Notes: generated from the letters alone by a model not told the origin. Shown: positions 34,409 to 64,000, counted from the stretch's first letter. The stretch is 64,000 nucleotides of DNA from an uncultured virus (IMG/VR IMGVR_UViG_3300036865_000084) (IMGVR_UViG_3300036865_000084); one strand, 5' to 3'. Translations and numbers: made by a program.

Positions 34409-34650
34409 CCTAGGGATGCCTCAATTCTGGTTCGAGTGCCGCCGAAACGCTAGATGCGTAAAACGCCAGAAAATAAAGGCGCTGACGCGATCACAAATCG
34501 CGCGGTACCGTTTGAAGCGCGGTGCTCGACTACCTCGACTTGCTCGCCAAGAACAGAGAGTCCGCACCAGAGCATGCGGCGGTGCCGGTGCTCTATGCGA
34601 AAACGAAGAAGAAGTCGAAGTCGAAACCGACTCGCACAACGGAGAAGAAG

Positions 34651-38930: not shown

Positions 38931-39340
38931 ATCGAACAGGCGTCGGACAGGGACTTGCGGAGCATCATCGGCTCTTGACCGCCGGCATCCAGCCCCCCGG
39001 CGGCATTCACCCCGGCGGCGGTCAACTCGGCGGCGGCCAAGGAGGCACCATGGATCCTCTCGATCAACTCCAGCAAGCCATCGACAACGCGTTGCCGGCG
39101 AACGCGCCCGAGCGCACCGCGATCGACGCGGGCATCGCAGCGCTGAAGGCGTCTCCCGAGGCCGCCGCGGTTCGGATGGCGCTCTCGCAGTTCTGCGCGT
39201 CCATGACCCCCGTCAATCCGCCCGCGCAGACGCCCGCGACGGGCGTTTCCCCCGGAGCTGCGGCCGGCATCGGCGCCGGCGGTCTCGTCGTCGGCGCGCT
39301 CGTGGGGTTCGGCATCGGCAGAAGCGGGAAGCGGCGATGA
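38927..39340 (+). CDS. Membrane protein with C-terminal TM
   Basis: GAAAGIGAGGLVVGALVGFGIG followed by a basic tail. Confidence 0.6.
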   Translation: MNRTGVGQGLAEHHRLLTAGIQPPGGIHPGGGQLGGGQGGTMDPLDQLQQAIDNALPANAPERTAIDAGIAALKASPEAAAVRMALSQFCASMTPVNPPAQTPATGVSPGAAAGIGAGGLVVGALVGFGIGRSGKRR

Positions 39341-40179
39341 GTTGCTGCGCGTCCTGCGCGCGCGGTGAGCCGTGCGAGTCGCTCTCGGGGGCGGGGCCGT
39401 TCGCCGGCACCCCCGGCTATGGCGACTACCCCGGCGTCGGCTACAGCCCGACGCGGCCGCCGCAGGGCAGCTACAGCGGCGGCTACCACGTGGTGCCGCC
39501 GGAGTACGAGAACCCGCCGCGCAAGGACGTCATGGCGGGGAGCGCGTCCTTCTACCCCCGCCGGCGGCCCGGCGTCGGGCAAGACATGTTCGAGCATCGC
39601 CGTATCGGCATCGGCGACGCCGCCGCCTTCGGCGCGGCCCAACGCGATCTCGCGACGAGCATGGGCACCGTCGTGGCGCAGGGCGACTTCTCGTTCACCG
39701 CGGGCGACTACCAGGCGGCGATGCAGTCGTACAAGAACGCCGGCGCCTACGGCGCGCAGACGCTCGGCCCTGAGATCGACGCCGCCGGCGCACCGAACGT
39801 CACGCAGCCGCTCACGCAGGAAGCCTGGACCCTCAACGACAGCCAGCTCGCGCACATCGATCCGACGACGAACGATCAGAACCTCGCGCAAATGGCGCAG
39901 TCGACGGCGCACAGCATGGTGGCGCTCTACCAGCGCGCCATCGCCGCCGGCATCGCTGCGCTCGGCCAGCCGCAGCCGCCGGCGCCTCCGCAGCCTCCAC
40001 CGCAGCCGCCTGCTCCGCCGCAGCCAGCGCAGCCGGCGCAGACCGATTACACGGTGCCGATCCTCGTTGGCGCCACCATCATCGGCGCCGGCATCGTCGG
40101 ATGGGCGCTCTATACGAAGAGGCCGGCGCGGCACGTGGCGGCAGAGAACCCCGTCCGGCGTCGAAGGAGACGGCGATGA
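39337..40179 (+). CDS. Membrane protein with PQ-rich linker, C-terminal TM and poly-Arg tail
   Basis: MSCCASC start; ends ENPVRRRRRR. Confidence 0.65.
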   Translation: MSCCASCARGEPCESLSGAGPFAGTPGYGDYPGVGYSPTRPPQGSYSGGYHVVPPEYENPPRKDVMAGSASFYPRRRPGVGQDMFEHRRIGIGDAAAFGAAQRDLATSMGTVVAQGDFSFTAGDYQAAMQSYKNAGAYGAQTLGPEIDAAGAPNVTQPLTQEAWTLNDSQLAHIDPTTNDQNLAQMAQSTAHSMVALYQRAIAAGIAALGQPQPPAPPQPPPQPPAPPQPAQPAQTDYTVPILVGATIIGAGIVGWALYTKRPARHVAAENPVRRRRRRR

Positions 40180-47436: not shown

Positions 47437-47616
47437 ATGAAGATCGGACGTTGCCCCGTGACGGGGCGCGCCCGCGTCGTCGTGATCCACGATGGCAAGA
47501 TCGTGGGCCACGCGTGCTACCCGGAAAAGCTCTCGAAGCTCTTCCGGGAGTACCCCGGCGCGGTCGCATTCGGGACGCTCGAAGCTATCGCCAACATCAA
47601 TCCGGAGTTGTCGTGA
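47437..47616 (+). CDS. Hypothetical protein
   Basis: GGAGACGCGAAC-ATG. Confidence 0.55.
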   Translation: MKIGRCPVTGRARVVVIHDGKIVGHACYPEKLSKLFREYPGAVAFGTLEAIANINPELS

Positions 47617-49148
47617 GCATCGGCGCCAAGGTGCAAAGCGACGTGACTGCGCTTCTCAAGGCGCGGCACACGCTGCTCTGGATCGTGACGCGGGAAGAGA
47701 CGCGCGTGGAGCGCGCGCTCATCGACGCGTGCGCGGACGCGAAGTATGCGCCGCTTTTCTGGGACTGCGCGACGGGCCTTTCGGACGCGTCGGGCAAGTC
47801 GGTGGACGCGCGCTTGCGCGACCCTGGCGCCTGCCTCGACCGCGTGCGCGACCGCTTGGAGCGCAACGTGTACGTGATGCGTGACCTGCACAAGTGGTTC
47901 GATCCGGTCGTGCTCCGCAACGTGCGGAGCTTGGCGCGGTCGCTCCAAGGTGCGTCGCGCGGTGAGGCTCGCGCGATCGTGATCTTGACGCCATCTTCTG
48001 AGGTGCCGCCCGAGCTCGCGGGGCACGCGACCGTGATCGACTGGCCGATCCCCGATCGGGCCGAGATCTCCAAGCTCTTGGACGACGTCCTTGCAGCGCT
48101 CCCCCCGGGGCTCGCCGCGTCGGCGGCACCCGAGCGCGACGCCGCGATCGACGCTGCCGTCGGCCTCTCGGCCGAGGAAGCCTCGAATTGCTACGCGAAG
48201 TCTCTCGTTGCGACCAAGCGCATCGACCCCGCGATCGTCGCGGGCGAGAAGAAGCGCGTGATCGCTCGCGAGAAGGTTCTCACGTGGCACGATCCGGACC
48301 CGCGCGGCCTCGACGCGGTCGGGGGGCTCGACACGCTGAAAGCGTGGCTCGCGCAACGCCGGCAAGCGTTCTCGCCGGAAGCGCGCGCCTACGGGCTGCC
48401 CTCTCCCAAGGGATGCATGCTCGTCGGCGTCCCGGGGTGCGGCAAGTCGCTCACGGCGAAAGCCGTCGCGAGCGCGTGGGGAATGCCGCTCCTCCGGCTC
48501 GACATGGGCGCGCTCAAGTCGAAGTGGGTGGGCGAGAGCGAGGCGAACATTCGTCGCGCGCTGCAAGTTGCCGAGGCGGTCTCGCCGTGCATTCTCTGGC
48601 TCGACGAGATCGAAAAGGCGCTCGCGGGAAGCACCGGCCCGCAAGGGGACGGTGGCGTGGCAGCCGATGCGCTCGGCGCGGTCCTCTCGTGGATGCAAGA
48701 GCGCTCGGGAAGCGTCTTCGTCGTCGCGACCGCGAACGACGTACGGGCGCTCCCCCCGGAGCTCCTTCGCAAGGGTCGGTTTGACGAGGTGTTCTTCGTC
48801 GACCTTCCTACGGCGCGCGAGCGCGAAGACATCGCCCGAGCGGCCCTCAAGGCGCACGGGCGAGAGCTCGACATGCGCGAGATCGCGATTGCGACCGCTG
48901 GTTTCACCGGCGCCGAAATCGCGGCCCTCGTCCCCGATGCGCTCTTTACCGCGTTTGCGGACGGGGCGCGCAGCTTGACGGTGCGGGACGTGCTCGACGC
49001 GGCATCGTGCGTGGTGCCGCTCAGCAAGACCGCTGCCGAGCGAATCGAAAACTTGCGAGCGTGGGCGAAGGGACGCGCCAGGCTCGCCTCGAAACCGGAG
49101 GTTCAGGAAAGCGGCCCGGCAAGGTCGCTCGACATCGACGCAAACTGA
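47613..49148 (+). CDS. AAA+ ATPase (Ycf46/SpoVK-like)
   Basis: GVPGCGKSLTAK, LWLDEIEK, ATAN, LPPELLRKGRFDE. Confidence 0.9.
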   Translation: MSIGAKVQSDVTALLKARHTLLWIVTREETRVERALIDACADAKYAPLFWDCATGLSDASGKSVDARLRDPGACLDRVRDRLERNVYVMRDLHKWFDPVVLRNVRSLARSLQGASRGEARAIVILTPSSEVPPELAGHATVIDWPIPDRAEISKLLDDVLAALPPGLAASAAPERDAAIDAAVGLSAEEASNCYAKSLVATKRIDPAIVAGEKKRVIAREKVLTWHDPDPRGLDAVGGLDTLKAWLAQRRQAFSPEARAYGLPSPKGCMLVGVPGCGKSLTAKAVASAWGMPLLRLDMGALKSKWVGESEANIRRALQVAEAVSPCILWLDEIEKALAGSTGPQGDGGVAADALGAVLSWMQERSGSVFVVATANDVRALPPELLRKGRFDEVFFVDLPTAREREDIARAALKAHGRELDMREIAIATAGFTGAEIAALVPDALFTAFADGARSLTVRDVLDAASCVVPLSKTAAERIENLRAWAKGRARLASKPEVQESGPARSLDIDAN

Positions 49149-49221
49149 CATGCTGCGCGGTCGCGCCCTCAGGGAAGACTTGGGGGCGCGCACGCGACGT
49201 ACGTCGCAGGAGACGCGAACC

Positions 49222-49956
49222 ATGAAAACTCAGATCATCAAGCCGGGGCTGTTGGTGGTGTTGAAGAGCACCGTGGCGGGGGGCGTGAGCTACAAGCGCG
49301 TGGACCTCGAAAACGACGCGAACCGCTCGCGCTGGGAGACCACGCGCATCGTCGACGATCCTCAGGAGCACGATCGCGCGACGAAGGCTCGCAGCAAGGC
49401 GAGCGCCGAGATCCGCGCCGTGTGCAGCGCGACCGCGTTCGGGCTCTTGTGCCCTGAGGACCGGGAGAAGGACCTCGACGGCGCCATCGCGCGGGCTCGC
49501 GCCATCGTGGACGAGCACAACCAGAGCGCGACGTTCACCAGGATCGCGATCTACGCCCTCAAGGGGCGCATCGCGTCGACCGACGAGGAGGCCGCGCGCG
49601 CCATCGGCGAGGAGGTGCGCAGCCTCGTGGACGCGATGGGCGTCGGCATCGACAAGCTCGATCCGGAAGCCATCCGAGAGGCCGCGACGAAGGCGAAGGC
49701 GCTCACCGCGATGCTGGACGATTCACAAGTCGAGAAGGTCAGCGAAGCGATCAAGCAGGCGCGCAGCGCGGCTCGCGCCATCGTCAAGCGCGTCGAGAAG
49801 GAGGGCGAGGCGGCTGCCGTGGTCTTGGCCGATATCCAGCGGGGCGCCATCGAGAAGGCGCGCATGGCTTTCCTCGACTTGGACGACGCGCCGGCGCGCG
49901 AGGAGTCGATGCCTCACGTAGACGTGCAGCGGTTCGACGGCATCGAGGTGCAGTGA
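49222..49956 (+). CDS. Helical hypothetical protein, likely ATPase partner
   Basis: RBS motif; follows the AAA gene. Confidence 0.65.
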   Translation: MKTQIIKPGLLVVLKSTVAGGVSYKRVDLENDANRSRWETTRIVDDPQEHDRATKARSKASAEIRAVCSATAFGLLCPEDREKDLDGAIARARAIVDEHNQSATFTRIAIYALKGRIASTDEEAARAIGEEVRSLVDAMGVGIDKLDPEAIREAATKAKALTAMLDDSQVEKVSEAIKQARSAARAIVKRVEKEGEAAAVVLADIQRGAIEKARMAFLDLDDAPAREESMPHVDVQRFDGIEVQ

Positions 49957-50291
49957 TGGCGTGCATGAACATGCTCGCTCCGGGGCAGACGCTCATCGAG
50001 CGCATGGCCCAGGTGGAAGAGGCGCTCGCGAGGTTGCGGGCGTCGCTCACGAGCGGACGCGTACGCGTCGCAATCGGTCCGAGGGGCGAGGTCTCGTTCT
50101 CGGGCTGGGAAGACCGGGACGGCGTGAACGACGCGTGCGCCTACCGGGCCCTCGCGGTCGCGAACAGCTGGGAGCTCCGGCAAGCGGTCGCCCGCGCCGA
50201 AGCTCAGAGCGGACGCAAGGTGAACGCGCACGCGGTCGCCAGCGGCGCGCACTCGCACGACGGGGGCAAGACCTGGCACAAGGGACACTGA
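49956..50291 (+). CDS. Hypothetical protein with His-rich C-terminus
   Basis: TGATG coupling; ends HSHDGGKTWHKGH. Confidence 0.6.
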   Translation: MACMNMLAPGQTLIERMAQVEEALARLRASLTSGRVRVAIGPRGEVSFSGWEDRDGVNDACAYRALAVANSWELRQAVARAEAQSGRKVNAHAVASGAHSHDGGKTWHKGH

Positions 50292-50366
50292 CGGTTACGC
50301 GGGCGCGCTCTCTCCGGAGACGAGGGGGCGCGCACGCGGCATCGTGAGCCGCAGGGAGACGCGAAG

Positions 50367-53300
50367 ATGAAGAAGCTGGTAGAGCTGAACGCAGGCAACG
50401 CAAAGCGCGTGCTGTCAATGCTCGTCGCGCTCGCGAAAGAGCACGGCGAGGCGCGTGTCCGCTGCGTGGAAGGATCGCACGACTCGATCTGTGTCGAGGT
50501 CTACACGCGCCCGACCGACTTCTCGCACGGCAACCTCGTCGACTCCGCGAGCGTGTGGATCGCTGGCCCGTACGCCGACGAAGGCGCGTGCTTTGCGAGC
50601 GGGCCGGCGATTCGCGGGGTCGTGGGGCGGTACTACCCGGAGCATCGCGAGGAGAAGGGGCGATGAAAACCGGCGTCCGCCACCTGCTCGACCGCGCCAT
50701 CGCCGACGGCATCGAACCGAAGCGACGTCGCCGCCCCTGCGGCGGCACGTTCCGCAACGGTCCGAGCAAGAAGTTCGCGCGCTGCGACCGCTGCGGCGTC
50801 GTCGATTACGAGAAGTACGAAGGAGACCGCCATGGATCCTGACGCAAACCTCGCGCGCCAGCTGGAGCTCGCGCAGGAGATTATCGACAAGATCGACGAC
50901 GGCGACGAGAGTGCGGTCGATAAGGCCTGCGCGCTCGCCGAGCTCGTCCTCGCCCTCAACGAATGGCTCGCGCGGGGCGGGTTCAAGCCGAAGGCGTGGG
51001 AGGTGAAGCCGAACGTCGAAGGCCATTCTGAACGGTGCAGTCGCGCGAACGGAAGGGGGTGCACAAGCGACTGCCCGAACTACGATCCGAAGTTCGACGA
51101 CAACGTTTAGGCGGCTCGATTCGCGTCTCGCCGCCCGCCGTCTCTCGGAATGGTCCGAGGGGCGGCGCCTGCGGGGCGCGAGTCGCGAAGGAAGCGCACG
51201 AGGCGAGGGTGCCCCTCGTAGTCGCGAGACGTCTCGTGCGCTTCCTTCGCGGCAACGAACGCGAGCAAACGAGGAGACGCGAACATGAACAAGTCGAAGA
51301 ATTGGAAGGACGAGCCGTACCTCGACAACTACCCGCCGCTCAAAGAGTGGCTCCGCAAGATCAAGGCGAATTGCGTTCGTCAGGAGCGCTTCGGTCCGGA
51401 CATGATCGAAACGTGGATGGCGAACGGACGCGGGTTCGTGCTCGTCATCCGTGCGCGGGGTCACGGGTGGAACATCTACACCGACTGCGACGACAACGGC
51501 ATCGAGGCGACGCTCCGCGACGCCGAGAAGCGGCTCGGCATCGAGGGCTCGTCGTCGTGAAGCTCGCCGACATCAAGCCCGGCCGCTGGTACGCGACCCG
51601 TGTCGGGATGGGCGAGTGCCTTAGACACTTCGACGGCGCGGTCTTCTTCAAGATCGACGGGCGCGAGCGCATCGTCCATCCGCGCGACGTCTACGGCGAG
51701 ACGAAGAAGCCGGAGGGTGCGCCGTGAGGATCACCATGGGCGCATGGGCGCTGCTCGGCGATCTGCGCGACGCTGCCGAGGAGTTCCGCAGCGAGCGTCT
51801 TGCCGTACCGACTCGATACGCTGCGGCGAAAAAGAAACTCGACGCCGCACGCGAAGCTTTGGAGCAAAACCTAATCGACCACCCTGAGTGGTTTGGAGTG
51901 TCGTCATGAAAATCGTCGTCGACGGCGTGGAGCACGAGGTGCCGCGGCTCACGCCCGCGCAGAGACTTGCGATGGTGTGTTGGTTCGACGGAACCGGCGC
52001 GTTGCTCAACATCGAGAAGAGCGCTACGCCGGTCTGGCGCGAGCTACTTTCTCTCGGGCTCGTTGTAGAGGGCGATCGGTCCAAGCACATTGCACCGTGC
52101 TTTCTGAATGGTTTGACCCCTCTCGGATGCGCGGTCGCCGCCGCCCTCGCTTCGCGGGTGCCGTCGTGACGAAGCTCGTCATCGGTCGCGGCATGAAGCA
52201 GCGGCTCACCAAGGCAGGCCTTCGCGCTGAGGAGCACTTCAAGAAACTCGCGGACGCGTACCTAGCCACCGTCGGGACGAAGCCGGGCCGCCTCGGCTAC
52301 GAATGGAACGTCGAGACGCGCGCTGGCACGCTCTCACTCACCGCGTACGGGCATTCGATTGCCGGCCGATTCGGGGACGTCGAGCGCGCGAAGGCGCTCG
52401 GTCTCGGCTACCTCAACCCGTACAGCGGCAAGTGGAACCACCACTACGAGATCGGGGCCGCGGAGGCGGAACTCGAGGACTTCAAGCGGCAGCTCGGGCG
52501 CGTGCTGCCGAAACCGGAAGGTGCTCCGTGAAGACGTGCTTGCATGGCTACTACGTGTGTCCCGAAGGCTGCTCGGCACTCGACTTCGCGAAGGCAGAAG
52601 CGAAAACTCTCGCCGCAGAGTATTCGCGCGACGTCCGAGCGCGACGCGCCGCGGGTGATGCGCGTCCCGAGTACCACGCGCAGCGTCCCAAGGTGAGGGC
52701 CTACGCCATCCTGATGCGTCGCGGGATGACCCCGCGCGAGGCTGTCGATTACTTCCGCTCCGTCTCGGAGGAACAATGATCCGAACCATCACCCCCACCG
52801 GCCAATTCTTCCTCTTCCCGCCCGACGTCCACGCCAAGCGCCTCGGCTTCGCGTTCGAGGTCATCGCGCTGACGACCCGCGCAAGGAAGTGGATCAAGAA
52901 GCGCGTCGCCCGAGGCGTCTCGTGGCCTCTCGTCGAGCCGCGCTACTTCCACGACATGGCGGAAGGGATGCAGCGGGACGGCCTGTTCTTGGTGGTGTCA
53001 TGACGCCCGCGGACACGCGCAAGCTCGAGTCTCTGCACCGACAGCTCGCCACCGCTCAGCGCAAAGCTCAGAAGTGGAAGCGCGCAGAGGCGACAACGAG
53101 CCTGGCGCTTGCGCGCGCGGAGCGCGCCCACGAACGTGCGCGGATCGCCCGCGCGGGCTGGCAAAGCCGCGTCAACAACATCAACGACATGATCGTCATC
53201 ATCCTCTTGGAGGAGGCTAATCATGGCTGACATCGTCATCAAGTTGCCGGACACGTCCGCGATGCGCGAGGTGCTCGCGTACTTTATCGGGGTCGCGAGG

Positions 53301-54276
53301 GTGGGGCGTGGCAATCTCTTCCGAAGGATCCGTCGGTCCATGGCATGTGCGCGCATCTCGTGGAGGCGGGGTGGCGCCCCGTCTGCGTGCGGATCTTCCC
53401 CGACCGCGCAAGGCGCTACACCGAACGCGAGATGTTGCTAGCTCGCGGCGGATGGATTTGCAGCAACTGCACGAAGAGGTATACGCGATGAACATCACCC
53501 ACCTCGGCGGCAACGCCTTTCGCCTCCGCGCCGAAGTTCAAGGCGCGTCGTTCGCTGTCGACCTGACGCTCTCGCAGGTCTTCGCGCTGCTCGAGGACGG
53601 GCTCGAAGCCGTCGTCGCGCATGTGGGGGAGCTCGACGCGTGCCCGTTCTGCGACGACGACGGCGCGTGCGACCTCACGACGCTGCTCATGAACATGCGC
53701 GAAGAAGTGAGAAAGGCGCATCCGTGAAGCCCTACTCGCCCCCCAAGCTCTCCGAGCTCCCGCCCCGCTCCGGCGAGGCGTGCGCCGCCATCGAGGCGTA
53801 CATCGTCAAGAACGGGTACGCGCCGACCTACAGCCACGCGTGTTTCCAGCACGACGTCGCTTGCGTTCAAGCGATGCTCGAGGCGGGACTCATCGAGAAG
53901 GCGCCGCTCTACGAAGGCGGTCCGCTCGTGAAGGTGCTCCTGACCGAGAAGGGGGCCGCGGTGGCGGCGCTCTATCGAGACGCGAGGAGGAGGTCGTAAG
54001 ATGCCCCGCGCGACCCGCATCTGCATCGGCGAGGCGAAGCTCGTCTACCGCAAGTGGCTCCAGCACTTCGCGGGCCGCCGCGTTGGCGACAGATTTCGCC
54101 AGGCCCAATTCATCGGGCACTGGACCTACTGGGCCGTCATGAGCGCGCTCGGCCACGAGCGTCGGATGATGATCTCCAAGAGCTTCTACAACGTCCTCGT
54201 CGAGCGCGGAGTGAAGCGCGGCAAGGACATCGTCGACCGCAAGTTCAAACCGCTACCGCCGAAGGACGACAAATGA
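50367..54276 (+). other. About 15 small coupled hypothetical genes (early/host-takeover-like region)
   Basis: Serial overlaps: 50367, 50663, 50832, 51285, 51557, 51724, 51906, 52166, 52528, 52776, 53000, 53223, 53488, 53724, 54001. Confidence 0.55.
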
Positions 54277-54605
54277 ACGCCTACGAAGAGCTCATCGACC
54301 GCATCAAGAAGATCCCGATCTCCCGACTCGGCGACGTCGTCGCGGCGATGGAGGGGCGCCTCGAATCAAGAGGTTTCACCAAGCAGCAGCTCGACGAAGC
54401 GGGCCGCGTCGCCGCAAGCCTGCCGAATGCCGCCGCGGCGGTGCTCGAGTCCTCCGAGGGAGACAAGCTCGCGGCGATGGAGCGCGAGGTCTGTAAGCTC
54501 GCTCTCTCGCGCTCCGGAGGCAACGTGTCGGCGGCGGCGCGACTCGTCGGCATGGATCGCAAGAGCTTCGACAGGCTGGCGCGGAAGCTGGGGGCGAGGC
54601 GATGA
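54273..54605 (+). CDS. Fis/NtrC-type HTH protein
   Basis: EREVCKLALSRSGGNVSAAARLVGMDRKSFDRL. Confidence 0.8.
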   Translation: MNAYEELIDRIKKIPISRLGDVVAAMEGRLESRGFTKQQLDEAGRVAASLPNAAAAVLESSEGDKLAAMEREVCKLALSRSGGNVSAAARLVGMDRKSFDRLARKLGARR

Positions 54606-55700
54606 ACGCTCACGTTGAACGCGCTCAACGAGAGCTCGTGCGCGCACTAGACGCGCTCCATGCGGCGGAAGACGCACTTTCGGGGCATGTCTTGCACGCA
54701 GATGCGGTTCGAGATATTCGCGACGCACAACGCGAAGTCTCATTCGCCATCAGAAAAATTCAGGATGCATCATGAGCCCCCGCCTCAAGAAGCCCACCGT
54801 CGAAGTCCCTCGCGACTACTACATCGCGCTCGAAGACGCCGCCAACGCCGCCGCAGAACTCTTCTCTGGCTTCTCTACCGACGCGGTCGAGAAGCTCGAA
54901 GAGTCGCTCGAGAAGCTCGACGGGCTGACGCCCGACGATGCCGGCGACTACCCGTACGCGCCGGAAGAGGAGAGGGGCGATGGCGGCGAAGAGAGCTAGA
55001 CAGCCGGCCGAAACTGAGGCATTGGAGTCGATCGTTCACGAGTGGATGTCGCCGACGCCGGCGCGGCCCGACGGCGTCTCCCCCGTCGATGCCGCCGCCG
55101 AGGTGCCGCCCGCGTGGGAAATCACTCCCGGTACCCCGATCGGACTCGACTACGAGGAGCCGCCCCGCCGACGACGGCGCCGACGAGTACGCTCGTGGCG
55201 CCGTTCTGCGCCGAAAAGCTCTCTTCCGGTGCTTGTCGCCACCGCTCTCGTACTCATGGAGAGCAAGGGCAAGAAGACGACCGACGTCCTCTGGGTAGGC
55301 ACCCACGACGGCGAGTTCGCGGGCACGTGGGACGACTTCAAGTCGATGAGCATCATGCGCGGGGACCTCGTCATCTGCGGCGACGGATGGTGGCTCGTAC
55401 GCGAGCCCGCTAGCTACCGGAGCGGCGGCAAGCGTTGGCGCTACATCGAGCCGCCGATCTGCTTGACGACGGCGAAGCCGCTTCGAGAGTGCTGGAGGAA
55501 GAAGCGATGCAACGAATAATCGAAGTCAGGACAGAGGGACACGTCTACGAGCTAGACCGTCTCGAGAATGCGCGAGGCGCGGAGCATCCGCCGGTCTTCG
55601 CTGTGACCTTCGACCGCCATCACAGAAAGCCGTTCACGACGCTCGAAAGTGCTTGGGCGTCTATCGAACGGTCGGTGCGCGAAGAGATCGAGAGGTACAT

Positions 55701-56231
55701 GTGAAGCGTCTCGCCCTCCTCTTCCTCAACGGCTGCGCGCTTCTCGCAGGGCTCGACGGCTACGAGCAAGCCTCTCTCGATAGCGGTGCCGCCGAGGCCG
55801 CGCCGGCAGCCGACAGTGGAAGCCTGGACGCCGACGCAAGCCTCGACAGCGGCGCGGAGTCTAGCATCGACGGCGGCACCGACAGCGGCAGTAGCGACGC
55901 CTCAAGCAGCGACGCCGCCATCGACGCCTCAAGCCCCGACGCCGACGCCGACACGTGCCCGCTCCCGACGTCGCCCGCGACGTGCTCCGGCGGCCAGCCC
56001 GGCTACGACAGGCCTGCCACGTTCTTCTTCACCGGTCACGCCGGTTGCGCGGGCGGCTTCACGCAATGTGCTCCCGTCGCGACGCCGGCGCAGTGTCAAT
56101 GCGCAGGCACGTACAACTGCGCGTGCGTCATGGCGGCGCACGCGGGCGGATACTCGAACTGCGCGCCCGACTCGGGCTACAACGTTACGTGCGATGATTC
56201 GTCGGGCACCGTCAACGTCAACATCTACTGA
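55701..56231 (+). CDS. D/S/A/G low-complexity, Cys-rich lipoprotein-like protein
   Basis: Short signal ending LNGC, DSG/DAS repeats, Cys-rich C-domain. Confidence 0.6.
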   Translation: MKRLALLFLNGCALLAGLDGYEQASLDSGAAEAAPAADSGSLDADASLDSGAESSIDGGTDSGSSDASSSDAAIDASSPDADADTCPLPTSPATCSGGQPGYDRPATFFFTGHAGCAGGFTQCAPVATPAQCQCAGTYNCACVMAAHAGGYSNCAPDSGYNVTCDDSSGTVNVNIY

Positions 56232-56240
56232 GGCACCCCC

Positions 56241-56735
56241 ATGATCGTGCACGCATACCTTGGAGAGATCGTCCATCACATGAGCACGGACAAGCGCCGC
56301 CGCTTCAGACCGTCCGGGCCCATCATGCTGTGCGAGCCGGGCGGCAAGATGCGAAAAGCGTCCGAGCGCCCGAAGGAGAACCCGCGGCAGATGTTCGGCG
56401 GCGGAGGCCTCTCGGCGCGCCTCTTCGTGGGCCTCAATGTCGGCGACACGCCGACGCACTCGATCGAGGACGTCGTCAAGGTCGTCGGCGACAACTACAA
56501 GGGCTCGGCGAGCTTCATCGCGCAGAAGGGCATCTACATCGACGATCACAACCACGCGATTCACGAGGACAGCGTTCAAGTCTTGCTCTTCGCCGACACC
56601 GACAGCGAGGAGAAGTTTCTCGACGAGATGACGAAGCTCGGAGAGACGCTCGCGTCGAAGCTCCAGCAAGAGAGCGTCGTCTTGGAGCTCCAGAAGAAGG
56701 GGATCTCGCAGGGGGTCTACGGCGTGAGGCCGTAA
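56241..56735 (+). CDS. DUF3574 / SAM-lyase-like protein
   Basis: LFVGLN...ASFIAQKGIY...EDS...LQQESV. Confidence 0.4.
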   Translation: MIVHAYLGEIVHHMSTDKRRRFRPSGPIMLCEPGGKMRKASERPKENPRQMFGGGGLSARLFVGLNVGDTPTHSIEDVVKVVGDNYKGSASFIAQKGIYIDDHNHAIHEDSVQVLLFADTDSEEKFLDEMTKLGETLASKLQQESVVLELQKKGISQGVYGVRP

Positions 56736-56752
56736 GCTGCTACTCTCGACCC

Positions 56753-57154
56753 ATGGCCGACTGCCCCCTCGAGAGCCCGCCCGCCCCCTGGCGCGTCTGG
56801 CCTTGGGCCGTGCCCGCGGAGCTCGGAGCGTTCGCGCAGGCCGCGCGCGTGCGCGCGTCGGCGCGGCCGGGCGGCTACCCCTACGGCGTCGTCACCGAGA
56901 CGATCCCCTACGGCAGCCTGCTCGTCGGCGCGTTTGCTTGTCACCATGACCGCACGGTCAAGCCCGACGGCACCGTCCAGTATGGATGCTACGACGCAGT
57001 CACCCTCGTCTACCAAGCCGCGGCGACCCCCGAGCCGCCGATGCCAGCGAAGACCGATTGGGGCGCCATCGCCGCGGGTACCGCCGCCATCGCGGTCGTC
57101 GTGGCCGGGTTTCTGACCGTCATCCGCACATCGCCCGCGAGGGCTGCGCGGTGA
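56753..57154 (+). CDS. Membrane-anchored hypothetical protein
   Basis: C-terminal TM; TACTCT 6 nt before ATG. Confidence 0.6.
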   Translation: MADCPLESPPAPWRVWPWAVPAELGAFAQAARVRASARPGGYPYGVVTETIPYGSLLVGAFACHHDRTVKPDGTVQYGCYDAVTLVYQAAATPEPPMPAKTDWGAIAAGTAAIAVVVAGFLTVIRTSPARAAR

Positions 57155-57555
57155 GCGCTCTCGCGCGCGCGCTCGTCGGCTTCGCGGCCGGCGGCTTCGC
57201 CGGCTACATCGCCGAGACGCTATACACCGGTGAAGCAAGATACAGCCACTTCTTCGACGACCGGAAGATCCCCTTTCTCCCCATCTACGGCGTCGGCGCG
57301 GCAGCCATCGCCGCAGCGGCGCCGGCGCTGCATGAAGCCGACGCGCCGTGGTGGCTGCGCTTCGTTTTCTACTCGGCCGGGCTCACCGTCGTCGAGATGG
57401 CTGGCTGCGCCATCGACAGAAGTGCCGGCGATGCATCTTGGAACTACGACAATTCTAAGGCTCTAGCGACGGCGGCCGGCGGCTGCGTGAGTCTTCCGCA
57501 CTCGCTTCTCTGGGGAGCTCTCGGCCTTGCCGTTGACCAGCTTGTGATGTTGTAG
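57151..57555 (+). CDS. CmpB/TMEM229-like (putative ABC permease) membrane protein
   Basis: GYIAETLY, PFLPIYGVG, VE..G, WNY, SLLWG. Confidence 0.65.
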   Translation: MSALARALVGFAAGGFAGYIAETLYTGEARYSHFFDDRKIPFLPIYGVGAAAIAAAAPALHEADAPWWLRFVFYSAGLTVVEMAGCAIDRSAGDASWNYDNSKALATAAGGCVSLPHSLLWGALGLAVDQLVML

Positions 57556-57683
57556 CGCCGTCACGTTGTCGGCCTGAAGTAGCTCCAAGATGCGCGGCTT
57601 CTCGGCTTCGGTGAACGCGACGGTGCCGTCGCCGACGTGCAGGATCAGGACGTTGCTTCCGATGCGTTCGAGTTTGATCCTGG

Positions 57684-58109
57684 TCATTCGTCTTCTCCTG
57701 GCGGCAGCGTGGCGGCGCCCGAGCGCACAACGCGCACGATGACGCTGGAAAGCTCGTCGATCGAGGTCACGGGCTTCGGTACGAACAATGTTGCGCCCTC
57801 AAGGCTCCGCGGGTCAATGCCCGAGGCCGCTCCAGAGAAGACGATGATGGGGATGTTCTCGAAGAACTCGTCGTCGCGCTTGATCTCGAGAAACCGCTGG
57901 CCGGACATACGCGGCATGATGAGATCCAAGATGATGCAGTCGGGCCGCCGCTTCGGGTCGTAGAGGACTCTCAAGCCCTCGACACCGTCGGCCGCCTCGA
58001 TGACCTCGAAGCCGTCGCCGCGCAGGAGCCGCGCCACGACATGACGAACGTGCTCGTCATCGTCGATGAGGAGGATGCGGACGCCGATGCCGGGCTGCCC
58101 TCTCGTCAC
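57684..58109 (-). CDS. Single-domain response regulator (receiver)
   Basis: ILLIDDD, PDCIILDLIMPRMSG, IPIIVFSG, VPKP. Confidence 0.85.
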   Translation of the reverse strand: MTRGQPGIGVRILLIDDDEHVRHVVARLLRGDGFEVIEAADGVEGLRVLYDPKRRPDCIILDLIMPRMSGQRFLEIKRDDEFFENIPIIVFSGAASGIDPRSLEGATLFVPKPVTSIDELSSVIVRVVRSGAATLPPGEDE

Positions 58110-58513
58110 GGATGCCCGCCCTTGTCGTAGTAGTGCTTCACGACGAGCAGGATGATCGCGATGACGATGTACACCGCGCGCTCGCGCCACATCTTGGCCG
58201 CCGACACCGACGTCTGGATGATGAAGCGCCCGGTGTCGCTGAGCTCGTCTTTCACGCGCTTCTCGCCGCTCTCGAGGCTCCCGAGACGGCGCCCCTGCTC
58301 GCGTACGCGGAGCTCCACCGCGCGAAGGCGCGCGAGGGCGTCTTCTGCCGTCGGCGGCTCGTAGTCGCGGCGGTAGTCGAGGTGGTCAGGCTGCACCTCT
58401 TCGCGTACGGGCGAGAAATCGCGCGACGGCGATCGTGGCCGCATCCCCGGGTCGTCGCGGGGCGCAAGCGGCGGTCTCGGTTGACCCGGTCGGGGCGGCC
58501 TCGGCGGCTCCAT
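58106..58513 (-). CDS. Pro-rich coiled-coil protein with C-terminal TM
   Basis: AVYIVIAIILLVV; TAGTCT 6 nt before ATG. Confidence 0.6.
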   Translation of the reverse strand: MEPPRPPRPGQPRPPLAPRDDPGMRPRSPSRDFSPVREEVQPDHLDYRRDYEPPTAEDALARLRAVELRVREQGRRLGSLESGEKRVKDELSDTGRFIIQTSVSAAKMWRERAVYIVIAIILLVVKHYYDKGGHP

Positions 58514-58531
58514 GGGCGAAGACTACTATAG

Positions 58532-58885
58532 CTAGAGCTTCATCGCCCGCCGCACGCTCGCGGCCTTCGGGATGTCCGACGCATCGTTCGGCGCGCACGC
58601 GTCGCACCAGTAGCCGGCGACGAGCCGCCGCGTCGCGGGGCCGGCGCACTTGCCGCACGGGGTCACCAGAAGCAAAAGATCGTGAATGAGCTCGTTACGG
58701 CCGTTGATCTGGAGCTCGACGACGCGGCCGAGGCCCTCAAGCAAACTCGCCGTCACCTCGTCGGCGCGCTGGCGCGCGAGCCGCGCCTCGTGGTCGATTC
58801 GGACGAGCAAGGCGTCGAGGCTGAAGGTCTCGACGCTGGACTTCGACCGCGGAGAGTCAGGGCGCGTATCCGGCTCATCGGGCAT
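58532..58885 (-). CDS. Hypothetical Zn-finger protein
   Basis: CGKC...CDAC; TATACT 7 nt before ATG. Confidence 0.5.
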   Translation of the reverse strand: MPDEPDTRPDSPRSKSSVETFSLDALLVRIDHEARLARQRADEVTASLLEGLGRVVELQINGRNELIHDLLLLVTPCGKCAGPATRRLVAGYWCDACAPNDASDIPKAASVRRAMKL

Positions 58886-58906
58886 CGGATCGAGTATACT
58901 CGCGTC

Positions 58907-59119
58907 ATGGTCGTCAGAATTCTCCATTGCTCGATCTGAGGCTACAAGACGAAGGCCGCCGGTCTGGCGGCTGCGCTCCGCGCCAAAGGTGCTGAGGTGA
59001 CGCTCGGTCTCGGCAACCGCGAGGCGTTCGACGTCATTGTCGACGGGGAGCTCGTCTACTCGAAGCTCGAGGACGGGCTACTCACGAACGATGCCATTCT
59101 GAAACGGATGGGCGTGTAG
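58907..59119 (+). CDS. SelW/Rdx-family selenoprotein (CxxU) with in-frame UGA at 58937
   Basis: MVVRILHCSI-U-GYKTKAAGLAAALRAKGAEVTLGLGNREAFDVIVDGELVYSKLEDGLLTNDAILKRMGV. Confidence 0.85.
58955..58971 (+). promoter_or_regulatory. Bacterial SECIS-like hairpin
   Basis: GCCGCC-GGTCT-GGCGGC with the loop 21 nt after the UGA. Confidence 0.75.
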
Positions 59120-59746
59120 ATACGCGACCGCGCTCGGACGATTGAGGCGCTTGTCGGCCGCGAGACCGAGCCACGGCTTCGACGGGAGACTCCACGCGCC
59201 GGGGGCGTGAATGAGCAAGTCGAGCGCTGTCGCCGCGCGTGCGCGGTCCATCCCCTTCCATTCGTGAATCTGCCATGGCCCGAAGGCGAGACCTTCGTCT
59301 TCGTTGCCGACGTGCCGCGGGTTCTTCGCCAAAACACTCTCGCGATGGGCGATGAAGATCAAGCTGACGACGTACTCCGCTTGCTCCTTCACGCCCGCGG
59401 CTTCGACGGCGTCAGCGCACTCGTTCGCGAACGTCGTCCAGCGCGCGAGCCGATCCTCTTTCGTCTCGAGGTTTCTCTCGGCGTACGCCGGCATCAAGCC
59501 GACGACGGCGTCGACGGCGTAGCGGTGGAGCGCGTCGGGAGGCGGCACCTCGGAGGCGGCGGCGGCGGGCTGAGGCGGCGCCGCGGCTGTCGGCGGCACC
59601 GCGATCGATGTCGGCGCCACCGGAGCTACCGCGGCAGGTAGCGCCAGATCGGGAATCGGGCTCGCCTCCGACATCATCAAGCGCATCACGAGCGCAGAGC
59701 CGATGAGAACGAACCCGAGAAACGCGACGGTGGCGATGAGTTTCAT
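59078..59746 (-). CDS. N-terminally anchored lysozyme/transglycosylase-like protein
   Basis: TM, Pro/Ala linker, AHRES...DEGLAFGPWQI. Confidence 0.5.
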   Translation of the reverse strand: MKLIATVAFLGFVLIGSALVMRLMMSEASPIPDLALPAAVAPVAPTSIAVPPTAAAPPQPAAAASEVPPPDALHRYAVDAVVGLMPAYAERNLETKEDRLARWTTFANECADAVEAAGVKEQAEYVVSLIFIAHRESVLAKNPRHVGNEDEGLAFGPWQIHEWKGMDRARAATALDLLIHAPGAWSLPSKPWLGLAADKRLNRPSAVAYLHAHPFQNGIVRE

Positions 59747-59789
59747 GCGGGCGACGCTGCCACGAGGCGGAGCGCGCGGCAAGCGCTGT

Positions 59790-60734
59790 TCAGCCTCCGC
59801 CGGCCGGCTCGCTGAAGCCCGGAGCGCTCGCCTCGATGTAGACCGCGAGGCCCTCTGCGTCGCCGGCGAAGCGCTGAAGATCGACGTGTGTCGCGATGCC
59901 GGGGCACGTGCCCGTGTCGCTGTACTGGTGGAAGTCGTAGCTCGGCGTCGCCGGCAGGCGCACGCCGTAGTGCGCGATCGAGAGGTCGGCGGCAACGCCG
60001 TAGAGGTTCATGCTCTTCAAGAGCGTGTCGCCGATGTAGAGGACGGGCTGCCGCATCGACAGAATCGTCAGCGCGTCGATGCACACAAGCACCTCGTCGC
60101 GCGTCGGCGTCACATACCGACCGTTCACGAGGTACGGCTCGACGTCGATCATCGGCGGGAGCTCTCCCGGGTCGTCGCCGAGCTGCGCGACGAAGTGCTG
60201 CATTTGAAGCTTCACGTCGACGCCGGTGTAGAGGAAGTGGTAGGCGCCGCGGGGGAGGCACCCCTTCGAGTCGGGCCAATTGTCGACGAACGTCTTGTCG
60301 ACGCCCGAGGCTCCCATCGTCGCGCGGATGTACGCGTAGAGCTTCTGCCGCCAGTAGAGCGGCGGGGCCGAAGCCGCTTTCTTCCAGTCGATGCTCTTCT
60401 GATACTCGCTGACGTCGATGCCTTCGGCGGGCATCGACACGACGTTCGTATCGGTGATGTCGCCGGTGACTTCGTAGATGGTGACGCCGCGGTGGCGGAT
60501 GTGATTCTGGAAGTCGGGCGGATGAACGTTGACCCACGCAAGGAGCGGTACGCCAGACTTCGCGTCGACGGTGAACTCCCCCGTCGTCGATTGGAAGAGA
60601 TCCAAGGGCCCGTGGAGAATATCCACAGCCCACGCGCTGATCGCGGGCGTCACCTCGCTGTCGTGGAGGGGACGGCAGCCGCCCGGGGGCGGAGGGTTCG
60701 GCGGCAGCGGCAACAGCGTCGCAGGTTGCGTCAC
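59790..60734 (-). CDS. GH25 muramidase (endolysin-like) with extra N-domain
   Basis: GIDVSEYQ..IDW, YIRATMG, GAYHF, IDVE, HQYSDTG..PGI. Confidence 0.85.
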   Translation of the reverse strand: MTQPATLLPLPPNPPPPGGCRPLHDSEVTPAISAWAVDILHGPLDLFQSTTGEFTVDAKSGVPLLAWVNVHPPDFQNHIRHRGVTIYEVTGDITDTNVVSMPAEGIDVSEYQKSIDWKKAASAPPLYWRQKLYAYIRATMGASGVDKTFVDNWPDSKGCLPRGAYHFLYTGVDVKLQMQHFVAQLGDDPGELPPMIDVEPYLVNGRYVTPTRDEVLVCIDALTILSMRQPVLYIGDTLLKSMNLYGVAADLSIAHYGVRLPATPSYDFHQYSDTGTCPGIATHVDLQRFAGDAEGLAVYIEASAPGFSEPAGGG

Positions 60735-61015
60735 GTCGTCTGCTTTCGCGCTTGCACCGCGCCCGCGAACCCCGTGACGAGCCATGCCGCGAGGCCGAGC
60801 CCCGCAGTCGCGAGCCCGGCTTCACGCCAGCGAGGGGATAGCGCGGCGGTGACGAGCCCGCCTCCCGCCGCCAGCGCGAGCCCGGCTTGCGGATTCGCGA
60901 CCAAGGCGCCCGCGCCTGCGCCGAGCGCCAACGCGCCGAGGCCGAAGGCGACGTTTCCGATCGAAGTCGTCGGCGGCGACAACGGGTTTTCGCGGCGACG
61001 CTTCGCGAGCTTCAT
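60731..61015 (-). CDS. Small multi-TM membrane protein
   Basis: MKLAKRRRENPL followed by three Gly/Ala-rich helices. Confidence 0.6.
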   Translation of the reverse strand: MKLAKRRRENPLSPPTTSIGNVAFGLGALALGAGAGALVANPQAGLALAAGGGLVTAALSPRWREAGLATAGLGLAAWLVTGFAGAVQARKQTT

Positions 61016-61207
61016 CGCTGGGGCCTCACTGGGCCGCGCCGAGGCGCGCGGCTCGAGTTGCCCATGCCGTCGGCGACACTGCCTCCATGGCCCGCCGTCA
61101 GATCGGCGATCGTGCCGAGGAAGACGAGCTCGGGCTTCACATAGGGCTTCTTGACGGGCTGCTTCTTCTCGTCGTCGGGCATGCCTCGAGCGTATCATGA
61201 AGCCAGG

Positions 61208-61861
61208 ATGGCGCTCGACCCCGACTTCTTCCCCGACTTGCGCGCCGTCGCCGCAAGCCTTCAGGCGAACCCCGCGGACGTGATGCTTGTGCTCTACGGA
61301 GAATCTGGGTTGGATCCCGCCTCCCATCGCGCGGGCTCTGACTACTACGGTATCAATCAGATGAACGGCGGCTACTTGCGACGCGCGGGCATCGACCCCG
61401 CGGACTACCTCACGTGGCCCGCGTCGCGGCAGCTCGACGCCGTCGTCGCGCCGTTTCTGAAAGGGCTCGTGGCGAGTCAGCTCAAGAAGCCCGTGCGAAG
61501 CGCGGGGGTGCTCGAGGCCCTGAACCTCTATCCCGCCGCCGTCGGCAAGCACGGCGACGCGCCCGACGCCATCGTCATCGACGGAAATTCAAACGACGCC
61601 GCGGAGCGCGCCGCATATCGTGCGAATCAAGCGCTCGATCAAGATCACTCGGGCGCGATCACGATCTCGGATCTCGACACATGGCTTCTCACGCGCTCGA
61701 AAGACAAGCCGTATCAACAGGCGCTCGCGCAACTCGGCGGCGCGCCAACGCCTTCGCCCCCGACTCAAAAAAGCAGCATCACGGGCGCCTTCGGCAAGGC
61801 GTTCGCGATCATCGGAGCGGCGAGCTTCTTTGCGTGGGCGCTGAGGAAGAGACGCGTGTAG
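61208..61861 (+). CDS. Lytic transglycosylase-like protein with C-terminal TM
   Basis: VLYGESGLDP...YGINQM...YRANQALD. Confidence 0.65.
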   Translation: MALDPDFFPDLRAVAASLQANPADVMLVLYGESGLDPASHRAGSDYYGINQMNGGYLRRAGIDPADYLTWPASRQLDAVVAPFLKGLVASQLKKPVRSAGVLEALNLYPAAVGKHGDAPDAIVIDGNSNDAAERAAYRANQALDQDHSGAITISDLDTWLLTRSKDKPYQQALAQLGGAPTPSPPTQKSSITGAFGKAFAIIGAASFFAWALRKRRV

Positions 61862-61870
61862 GCTCAGCCC

Positions 61871-62692
61871 ATGGGCCAATTCACCAACTCGTGGCGCCTG
61901 CGCGTCCGGCGTCTCGAATACCTCATCGAGCGCGCCTTGCGCGCCGGTCAGGCGGTCGCCAACGCGTGGCTCCAGGGCGGCAACGCGTTCGGCGCCACGG
62001 GGGTCTTCGGCACGCTCGACAATAACCCCGTCAACGTCATCACGAACAGCGTCACGCGGTTCGCGTTCGACACGAGCGGCAACATCGTGCCGGCAGTCGA
62101 CAACAGCGGCTCCGTCGGAACGTCGGCGCGCCGCTGGGGGTCGTTCATCGGCGTCAGCGTCACCGCCGGCGGAGGCGCCAGCATCATCACGGTGAACCCC
62201 GCGGCTGGGCTCGTCGTCCGCTGGGGCGCGACGCAAGCGGCGCTCGCCGCGGGCGACATCGGCATGGACCTCGCGACGGGGCGCGGGACGCTCTTCGTCG
62301 GCGGCGTGAGCCAGGAGATGGCGGTTTTGGGGGATCTCCCCGGCGGCGGCGCGGCGACGTTCCCCGCGACCATCACATCAGCCTCACCGCAGTACACCGC
62401 CATCGGCACAGATCGGCTGATCGAGGTCGACGTCTCGGGAGGGCAGCCCTCCGGCGGCCTGCCGATCAAGTTCGACGCCGCTGCCACTACCGGCACGCAG
62501 CATACCGTCAAGGTCGTCGCCGGAGACGCCGCGGTCAACACCGTCGGAGTCAGCGGCAACGGACAAAACATCGAGGACCCCAACAACCTGGGGACGTTCA
62601 CCGCCTCTACCGTCTTCATCAAGTCGCCCGGCGGCGCCGTCACGTGGATGTTCGACGCCAACAACCGCTGGGCCGTCATCGCGAGCGCATGA
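61871..62692 (+). CDS. Fibre/spike-like protein
   Basis: AWLQGGNAFG..GTLDN, SGNIVPAVDN..SVGTSARRW, ending TWMFDANNRWAVI. Confidence 0.6.
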   Translation: MGQFTNSWRLRVRRLEYLIERALRAGQAVANAWLQGGNAFGATGVFGTLDNNPVNVITNSVTRFAFDTSGNIVPAVDNSGSVGTSARRWGSFIGVSVTAGGGASIITVNPAAGLVVRWGATQAALAAGDIGMDLATGRGTLFVGGVSQEMAVLGDLPGGGAATFPATITSASPQYTAIGTDRLIEVDVSGGQPSGGLPIKFDAAATTGTQHTVKVVAGDAAVNTVGVSGNGQNIEDPNNLGTFTASTVFIKSPGGAVTWMFDANNRWAVIASA

Positions 62693-64000
62693 AAGCCATG
62701 AAAAACCATCTCGCTCTTCTCGTCGCGCTGTTTTTGATCGCGTGCCCCGGCGATACGACGCCTGTCGCCGTCGACGCCGGCGCGAAGCCTGCGCCTACGG
62801 ATGCACCCCCGCCGCCTCTGCCGCTCGACAACGCGCCGGCGCAGCCGACGCCCGACTGGATGCTCAAGCCGCGGCCGCCGCTCGGCAACGTCAGAGCCGC
62901 CGGCACGCGCCCGCCCATCATCCCCGCGAGCTGGACGGTGCCCGCGTGGTTCATCGATCCTGCGAATAGTTCTGGTGCCGCGAGCGACAACAATACCTGC
63001 ACGACATCGGGAGCTCCGTGCCTGACGTACGCCGAAATAGCGGCGCGATGGGGCACGTACTTTCCCAGGCTTCGACAGACGACCACGTTCACGTGGATGT
63101 CGAGCCACACCGATGGCACGGATCCTGTCATCCAGAACCCGTACCTCGAGAACGGCGCGTCGCTCTTCAACAACGGGACGTTGGTGCAGACGTGCACGGG
63201 CACATTGGCTGGCGTCGTTGCCAAGAATCGGAACACGCCGCAGCTCCTCAACGCGACGTTGCCGGCGGGAGCGGCGATCAATCAGCTCATCATCAACACG
63301 ACCCACGCTTCGCGCGCCTGGACGTACACGTCGCTCGGAGCCGGCGCCTTCTCGATCTCGCAGCCGCTCGTCAGCCAAACGTTGCCGCACAACTTTATCT
63401 TAGCGGGCTCCGAAGTCGACACGTGGGCTAACACCGATGCCGTCACGTGCAACACGCTCTCGAACATCAACTTCGTGCAGCTTTATCCAACGGTCACGGA
63501 CCTCGGAACTGGATCCGCGAACGCGGGGATCTACCTGCAACAGATCGGGGTCTTTGCCCCGTTTTCGACCTCGGATCTCGTCCTCATCAACAGTCAGGTC
63601 CGCTTCTTCGAGGTATTCTCGAACAAGGGGATACAGACGGTCCTCTCGACAAGTAATGCGACGAATGGCGTCTACAACACCGACGTCCTCGGGAACTTTC
63701 AGAAGCAAACATGCGCGCAAGGAAGTACGGCGTTCGTTGGCGGTATCGCGCGCGGCCCACAGCTCTCCGGATGCACCGTCATCATTGACGGCGACGCAAT
63801 CGCTGCTGCGACCAACAACATCATTCAAGGGCTTTCATCGACTGTTGCCGGCGTTACCGGCCTCGGTCTCGTCTACATCGAATCAGGCAAGTCGCTCCAA
63901 GCTTCCGCCGGCGCTACCGGTATCGCCAATAACCTCTCCATCGGCACACCGATCCTCTGGGGTCCAGGTAACTTTCGCCTCGTACAGACTGCGCACGTGA
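62689..64000 (+). CDS. Large lipoprotein-signal, probable beta-helix protein; runs off the window
   Basis: LFLIAC lipobox, Pro linker, WFIDPANSSGAASDNNTC..GAPCLT motif; frame appears open to the window end. Confidence 0.65.
   Translation, partial: MKAMKNHLALLVALFLIACPGDTTPVAVDAGAKPAPTDAPPPPLPLDNAPAQPTPDWMLKPRPPLGNVRAAGTRPPIIPASWTVPAWFIDPANSSGAASDNNTCTTSGAPCLTYAEIAARWGTYFPRLRQTTTFTWMSSHTDGTDPVIQNPYLENGASLFNNGTLVQTCTGTLAGVVAKNRNTPQLLNATLPAGAAINQLIINTTHASRAWTYTSLGAGAFSISQPLVSQTLPHNFILAGSEVDTWANTDAVTCNTLSNINFVQLYPTVTDLGTGSANAGIYLQQIGVFAPFSTSDLVLINSQVRFFEVFSNKGIQTVLSTSNATNGVYNTDVLGNFQKQTCAQGSTAFVGGIARGPQLSGCTVIIDGDAIAAATNNIIQGLSSTVAGVTGLGLVYIESGKSLQASAGATGIANNLSIGTPILWGPGNFRLVQTAHV

Follow-up and report, generated by a model that had tools for sequence, protein, structure and literature searches.

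The window, a 64,000-nt stretch of DNA from an uncultured virus (IMG/VR IMGVR_UViG_3300036865_000084) analysed here over its full length, probably carries an intact gene for a SelW-like selenoprotein of the Rdx family (58907..59119, plus strand), in which selenocysteine (Sec) would be inserted by way of a hairpin and host machinery, on a circular virus-like element. The gene comprises 70 codons and a TAG, with the TGA at codon 11 proposed to specify Sec. What is demonstrated below is that the product belongs to this family and has its fold, that the UGA lies at the homologous position, and that a conserved, covarying hairpin is specific to UGA forms. A virus-carried CxxU SelW/Rdx gene with a SECIS element inside the ORF had been proposed in a first-pass annotation of this DNA, and family, fold, TGA, covariation, covariance model and Cys-form controls all agree with this core reading.

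Reading frame, protein family and fold

Read from the sequence, the frame begins with an ATG (58907-58909, plus strand) and ends at a TAG (59117..59119), with the TGA at 58937..58939, the proposed codon for Sec at residue 11, as its sole interruption. The TGC at 58928..58930 encodes Cys8 of the C-x-x-U redox motif, which is invariant in alignments A1 and A5. In translation, the read-through product has 70 residues, with C-S-I-U-G-Y near the N terminus and FDVIVDGELVYSK in its core; the ORF, both motifs and the hairpin described in the first-pass annotation are all in place. The GC content at the three codon positions of this frame is 0.65/0.39/0.79, and a GC3 of 0.79–0.82 is that of the element's own genes. 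As had been foreseen, gene callers overlook the gene: the protein collection contains just a 40-residue stub starting from GTG 58997, and this stub illustrates how virome gene calls miss genes of this kind.

With Sec entered as Cys, the protein exceeded the curated cut-offs of both Pfam PF10262 (Rdx; 41.8 bits vs. 22.6, E = 1.3e-10) and NCBIfam TIGR02174 (CXXU_selWTH; 39.3 bits vs. 34.2). The Pfam match covers residues 3-66 of the 70 and spans both sides of the TGA, in line with the Rdx assignment made earlier. A score of 40 bits against the cut-off of 88 for the equivalog NF041051 (SelTWH_Campy) places the window protein outside the narrow Campylobacter subfamily. A HMMER search of 1.84 billion representatives yielded just 14 relatives at E ≤0.001, with 35–52% identity and mostly with CxxC. 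The C8-S-I-U11 motif aligns with CxxC or CxxU in the aligned relatives, the exceptions at the second redox position being P0008 (W) and P0009 (S). In P0008 the motif reads C-S-L-W, and its W is probably a TGA Sec codon translated as Trp under another genetic code. Homologues with Cys at the UGA position, named as a check in the first-pass annotation, exist both among the database homologs and as one metagenomic relative with TGT.

The AlphaFold2 model of the SelW-like protein, built with 35 sequences, has a pLDDT of 92.7 and a pTM of 0.80. It contains a strand at residues 2-7 and a helix at residues 14-26, with Cys8 at the end of the first strand and the CxxU motif between this strand and the first helix. 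In a Foldseek search of the PDB, ranks 1-20 were occupied by SelW-related/Rdx structures and thioredoxins appeared only from rank 24; the top matches were 3dex, 2ljk, 2ojl, 2fa8, 2p0g, and 2npb, which include SelW-related proteins of Agrobacterium and Vibrio. The predicted fold is similar to those of SAV_2001 of Streptomyces avermitilis (3dex; TM 0.83 normalised to the query), mouse SelW (2npb; TM 0.73, sequence match with E = 0.09) and human MIEN1 (2ljk; TM 0.71, sequence match with E = 2.7e-6), all TM values being normalised in the same way. Identity between the window protein and the solved proteins of the Rdx fold is just 26–31% over the structural alignment. On the strength of the model, the product is assigned the thioredoxin-like beta-alpha-beta-beta-beta-alpha fold of SelW/Rdx proteins; it would be a 70-residue thioredoxin-fold protein with Cys8-x-x-Sec11 as its redox centre.

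Two near-invariant features of the Sec-type relatives are missing from the window protein, which has His7 in place of the Tyr preceding Cys8, and G-L-L-T in place of G-R-F-P after DGELVYSK. Tyr7 and Gly57 are each at least 90% conserved in alignment A5, in which the window protein also has the shortest C terminus. The Tyr before Cys and the G-R-F-P motif are typical of Sec-type relatives and do not define the family. The departures from Tyr7 and G-R-F-P would suit a silent or decaying passenger, namely an acquired bacterial SelW-like gene whose UGA is not, or no longer, translated and which yields a 10-residue peptide or nothing. This state of affairs, which would apply if the host lacked Sec machinery or if its SelB failed to read the hairpin, appears unlikely: all 70 codons are open save the Sec codon, GC3 agrees with the genes of the element, the hairpin has all seven of its pairs (above the family mean of 85.9%) and the predicted fold is modelled with high confidence. 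Further points on the side of a passenger come from the surroundings of the gene and are given with them below.

The in-frame UGA and the SECIS-like hairpin

A scan of metagenome contigs for SelW-like relatives retrieved 80 loci with 33–53% identity, which represent a chosen subfamily because the scan patterns contained DGELVYSK. The aligned codon is TGA in 79 of the 80 relatives and TGT in the remaining one. They yield 68 distinct small ORFs (58-85 residues) whose start precedes the Cys by a few codons; 65 of these are complete, at 70-85 residues. Rdx matches are also present in 38 of 401 Chloroflexota genomes, and one in-frame TGA is found in 10 of these 41 matches; both Sec and Cys forms of Rdx thus occur in Chloroflexota. 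Judged from these sequences, the apparent stop TGA 58937, seen in assemblies that may stem from one sample, very probably encodes selenocysteine.

General reassignment of TGA in the element was rejected, since TGA is the commonest stop codon of the window (it closes 43 of the 74 ORF calls and, among the 24 with family support, 16). A screen of the window for C-x-x-TGA and TGA-x-x-C found seven sites, including that of the SelW-like gene. Another candidate selenoprotein, at 16067 on the minus strand, was discarded; it has no start codon, and its frame is of low complexity and rich in Arg and Ser.

The SECIS-like hairpin (58954..58972, plus strand) begins 14 nt past the TGA and consists of a 7-pair stem (58954-58960 with 58966-58972) and a GGUCU loop (58961-58965). 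Its core, GCCGCC/GGTCT/GGCGGC, is located at 58955-58971, and a G.U pair between 58954 and 58972 lengthens the stem to seven pairs. The folding energy is ordinary for DNA of 67% GC (z = -0.58), so the hairpin alone proves nothing.

All of these relatives show a hairpin whose register relative to the UGA is that of the window, its loop being GGUCU or AGUYU. In 65 distinct sequences, 85.9% of the cells of the 7-pair helix are paired, compared with 72.4 ± 1.0% after shuffling (0 of 500 shuffles), and two-sided changes affect 56 cells vs. 12.4 in the shuffled set (0 of 500). A covariation score of 0.419 was obtained, which falls to at most 0.164 with partners slid by 1-3 columns. The conserved residues A-A-G-L-A-A account for part of the conservation of the hairpin. 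The compensatory changes alter residues (A-A...A-A, A-V...T-A, A-T...V-V, A-S...E-A), and amino-acid conservation alone therefore fails to explain the helix.

The covariance model R1, describing the TGA plus hairpin, was built from 64 relatives with the window left out. Applied to both strands of the 64 kb, it gave one strong match, exactly at 58937-58984 on the plus strand (45.3 bits, E = 2.8e-9), the next-best match in the window scoring 11.8 bits. All seven pairs are in register in the window gene and six of seven in a Sec-form Chloroflexota gene; in all six Cys-form relatives with readable DNA, 2-4 of the seven pairs form in register and 3-5 when shifted by one codon. At the level of sequence, the hairpin shows both conservation and covariation, and it is a feature specific to UGA forms. 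Rfam returned nothing at gathering thresholds in the window, and near the gene just a chance-level narK match.

A minus-strand copy of the hairpin (58971-58955), together with its T-containing tail, is flagged as terminator-like in a consensus scan; on that strand, the ORF ending at 59078 is some 100 nt upstream of it. The hairpin could on these grounds serve the lysis genes of the minus strand as an intrinsic terminator, or else be a by-product of the codons for A-A-G-L-A-A, with the TGA acting as a true stop. We regard this as highly improbable. Across unrelated genomic contexts, compensatory changes that alter residues preserve the register between helix and UGA, the helix is missing in Cys forms with similar residues, and the residues on either side of the TGA fit the family. 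The scan rule is moreover a loose one, giving two sites where 0.5 are expected.

A resemblance to the SECIS element of Escherichia coli fdhF had been pointed out in the first-pass annotation and is real: both are stem-loops inside the ORF that present GGUCU after the UGA. Numbered from the first base of the UGA, the pentamer occupies positions 22-26 in fdhF and 25-29 in the window, where it is thus one codon (3 nt) further away. The fdhF element has a bulged U, to which the plain 7-pair GC-rich helix of the window has no counterpart. In the proposed mechanism, a ribosome reaching the UGA at 58937 would encounter the in-CDS hairpin at 58954-72, whose GGUCU loop would recruit the host SelB.GTP.Sec-tRNA(Sec) complex, and Sec would be inserted in place of termination, as for E. 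coli fdhF and many bacterial SelW-like genes. A small apical loop containing G serves as a criterion for bacterial SECIS elements in the survey of Zhang, Fomenko, and Gladyshev (PMC1088965), and the GGUCU loop of the window stem-loop is of this type.

Carrier element, gene setting and host

The window has a GC content of 62.5–69% in 4-kb windows. It encodes replication and recombination functions (a Prim-Pol/VapE primase-helicase, a ResIII helicase, a PD-(D/E)XK exonuclease, Sak4 and a DnaQ-like exonuclease), as well as ParB, ThyX, RadC, GroES, four HNH proteins, a tyrosine integrase and a GH25 endolysin. Matches to PHROG families include DNA helicase, Sak4, ParB, endolysin and integrase, and an AAA ATPase matches phrog_8638 with an E-value of 1e-162. 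This ATPase (47451-50288, plus strand) shares 44% identity with that of Corndogvirus-type Mycobacterium phages, and the next two genes also match phage families (phrog_11021 and phrog_11784).

The element is about 75 kb in size, as judged from two assemblies of 75,222 and 75,123 nt. Window position 56000 corresponds to position 1579 of the second assembly; the two assemblies begin at different points, as expected for a circular or circularly permuted genome. Its DNA is present in three wetland metagenome runs, one of which is perhaps the source of the window; contigs of two further runs are identical over parts of the region. The carrier would be a circular virus-like element of ~75 kb, and a temperate virus infecting a high-GC bacterium of the wetland is its most likely identity.

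A conserved 489-residue protein without a family assignment (35897-37363, plus strand) has 50 homologs; the longest contigs on which these occur often measure 58-78 kb. Nine of the homologs lie in viral records of IMG/VR with sizes of 37-78 kb. Direct terminal repeats are present in four of these records, and CheckV rates six of the nine as at least 90% complete. The model of this protein (pLDDT 75) is beta-rich and bears a weak resemblance to jelly-roll capsid proteins, with Z ≤6.2, which is within the chance range for the tool; Foldseek found no match at E ≤0.001 in the PDB and BFVD. Two other genes of the putative structural block have unusual compositions: the product of 34522-35823 (plus strand) contains runs of 6-7 arginines between A-R-R-A-A, plus a Cys cluster, and that of 39337-40176 (plus strand) begins M-S-C-C-A-S-C and has seven arginines at its end. 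No family match was obtained for either.

Neither Pfam nor PHROGs recognises a capsid, portal or terminase gene in the 64 kb of the ~75-kb element, and the "virus" label therefore rests on the relatives and on non-structural genes. Terminase_6N and 6C likewise gave no match above cut-off in five complete relatives. No matches to phages were obtained by tblastn with two large family-less proteins or by megablast with 50000-64000, and IMG/VR scans made singly with the endolysin, the minus-strand ORF 58532-58927 and the 489-residue protein found no relatives. These gaps in the structural genes, the weakness of the fold matches of the 489-residue protein and the presence of ParB and an integrase would be consistent with a plasmid, another mobile element or mis-binned bacterial DNA carrying an ordinary bacterial SelW-like gene. 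We consider such a carrier quite improbable. The GH25 endolysin and many PHROG families are encoded, the relatives come from IMG/VR as viral genomes bearing direct terminal repeats and rated complete by CheckV, the longest contigs with homologs cluster at 58-78 kb, the weak fold matches are mostly to viral jelly-roll capsid proteins, and a tblastn search of 72,556 plasmids with the window protein found nothing. In all likelihood, as far as its gene content and relatives indicate, the carrier is a virus, and it may represent an undescribed, perhaps non-tailed, clade.

The SelW-like gene is located antisense within a block of minus-strand genes on the lysis side of the element. The block includes the GH25 endolysin (59790-60785), an ORF with an N-terminal hydrophobic segment (59078-59743) and an ORF with a C-x2-C...C-x2-C pattern (58532-58927), the latter two without Pfam or PHROG matches, a further ORF call (58106-58513) and a stand-alone response-regulator receiver domain protein (57684-58190), all on the minus strand. 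Near the lysis genes is also a CmpB-like membrane protein (PF06541; 56986-57552, plus strand). The 5' end of the SelW-like gene overlaps the start of ORF 58532-58927 by 21 nt and its 3' end overlaps the end of ORF 59078-59743 by 42 nt; the former overlap vanishes if ORF 58532-58927 begins at its second Met.

None of the nine related viral records contains an Rdx match, even at E = 1, and the two flanking ORFs were not found in five of them, which indicates a variable region and a lineage-specific acquisition. The SelW-like gene would accordingly be a lineage-specific "moron" pointing against the lysis-side block. A consensus promoter scan found no promoter-like site for the gene, and no ribosome-binding site is clear by eye upstream of it. 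A TATACT at 58895-58900 (plus strand), 6 nt before the ATG, would fit a leaderless transcript; it was skipped by the scan because a -35 partner is missing. Among the sequencing runs, no RNA run carries the stretch. The singleton status of the gene, its antisense position with overlaps on both sides and the outcome of the promoter scan speak for the passenger considered above, as does the reliance on an assumed Sec-competent host. An intact, working selenoprotein gene remains the preferred reading in view of the open frame, the hairpin, the GC3 and the modelled fold.

No tRNA gene was found in the 64 kb of the ~75-kb element and none of the 80 ORFs scanned there encodes a Sel protein; with no Sec machinery of its own in this stretch, the SelW-like gene can soundly be taken to rely on that of the host. 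The sole genome-linked lead to the latter, a weak one, comes from a Chloroflexota MAG into which a 4.4-kb contig was binned and which also contains selB above cut-off and a CxxC Rdx gene. Chloroflexota was rejected as an established host because the virus family marker occurs in just one of the 401 Chloroflexota genomes, i.e., in that same MAG, and because the Rdx genes of this phylum, 34–51% identical to the window gene, are no closer to it than the metagenomic relatives.

We infer that the SelW-like gene is translated, that Sec is inserted with the use of host factors, and that the product has a redox role. It may act as a small thiol/selenol oxidoreductase, changing the redox state of its host cell during infection or lysogeny. 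The narrower suggestion of the first-pass annotation, a redox factor for the many Cys-rich proteins of the element, finds no support: the 74 ORF calls have 1.33% Cys overall, and nine ORFs, among them HNH and zinc-finger proteins, have at least 3%. For the full combination of a working Sec-containing SelW-like gene of a bacterial virus, decoded via host SelB and tRNA-Sec, with a carrier from an undescribed clade of 64-78 kb that has no recognisable terminase and perhaps a jelly-roll capsid protein, we see an even chance.

Comparison with known selenoprotein systems

The sole proven viral selenoproteins named in the available text of two reviews are a GPx1-like protein of molluscum contagiosum virus and a GPx4-like protein of fowlpox virus (PMC6769590, PMC8310308), and a re-analysis of the GOS data, in its available portion, describes selenoprotein families with no or very few viral sequences (PMC9402790). 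No report of a phage selenoprotein was found in a full-text search of the literature, the coverage of which excludes subscription journals. The poxvirus genes are likewise captured cellular redox genes that are carried by a virus and reliant on the Sec machinery of the host. They belong, however, to animal viruses, use eukaryotic SECIS elements and encode glutathione peroxidases, whereas the gene described here has a bacterial-type SECIS element, is SelW-like and would belong to a virus of prokaryotes.

Relatives on other mobile elements were sought in several collections. The window protein and a typical relative, compared by tblastn with 50,697 phage records, gave nothing, and PHROGs contains no family matching the SelW-like protein. 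A scan of IMG/VR with this protein found no relatives, and one with alignment A5 gave 0 loci. A degenerate DNA pattern for DGELVYSK matched four IMG/VR stretches, none of which is an Rdx gene; this motif scan is a narrow test because the pattern covers CTN leucine codons only.

If the reading is true, the gene represents the first kind of virus-encoded selenoprotein outside the two poxviruses, and its SECIS element marks the host, by its very presence, as Sec-competent. Expression of the gene would mean that phages can exploit the selenocysteine recoding machinery of their hosts, and that selenium-dependent redox proteins are to be added to the auxiliary genes of phages. Expression would also impose a testable constraint on the host, namely Sec decoding with a SelB that reads the hairpin of the window.

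The closest known systems are the prokaryotic SelW-like selenoproteins, which Zhang, Fomenko, and Gladyshev described from bacterial genomes and marine metagenomes (PMC1088965, PMC2398784). According to these surveys of the Sargasso Sea and GOS data, SelW-like proteins form the most abundant prokaryotic selenoprotein family, with 427 Sec vs. 56 Cys forms in GOS (PMC1088965, PMC2398784); phages go unmentioned in the available text of both (PMC1088965, PMC2398784), and the function of the bacterial CxxU proteins is given as unclear (PMC1088965). The window protein resembles them in size (70 vs. 70-85 residues), in the start located seven codons before the Cys, in the CxxU motif and the F-[DE]-V...DGELVYSK core, in the thioredoxin-like fold, and in the register and G-containing loop of the hairpin inside the ORF. 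It differs from them in its sequence, with none of the relatives found exceeding 53% identity, and in its carrier, a virus-like element rather than a bacterial chromosome. Overall, the gene belongs to a known family, of which it is an ordinary representative, and has the recoding signal of that family; the novelty lies in its virus-like carrier.
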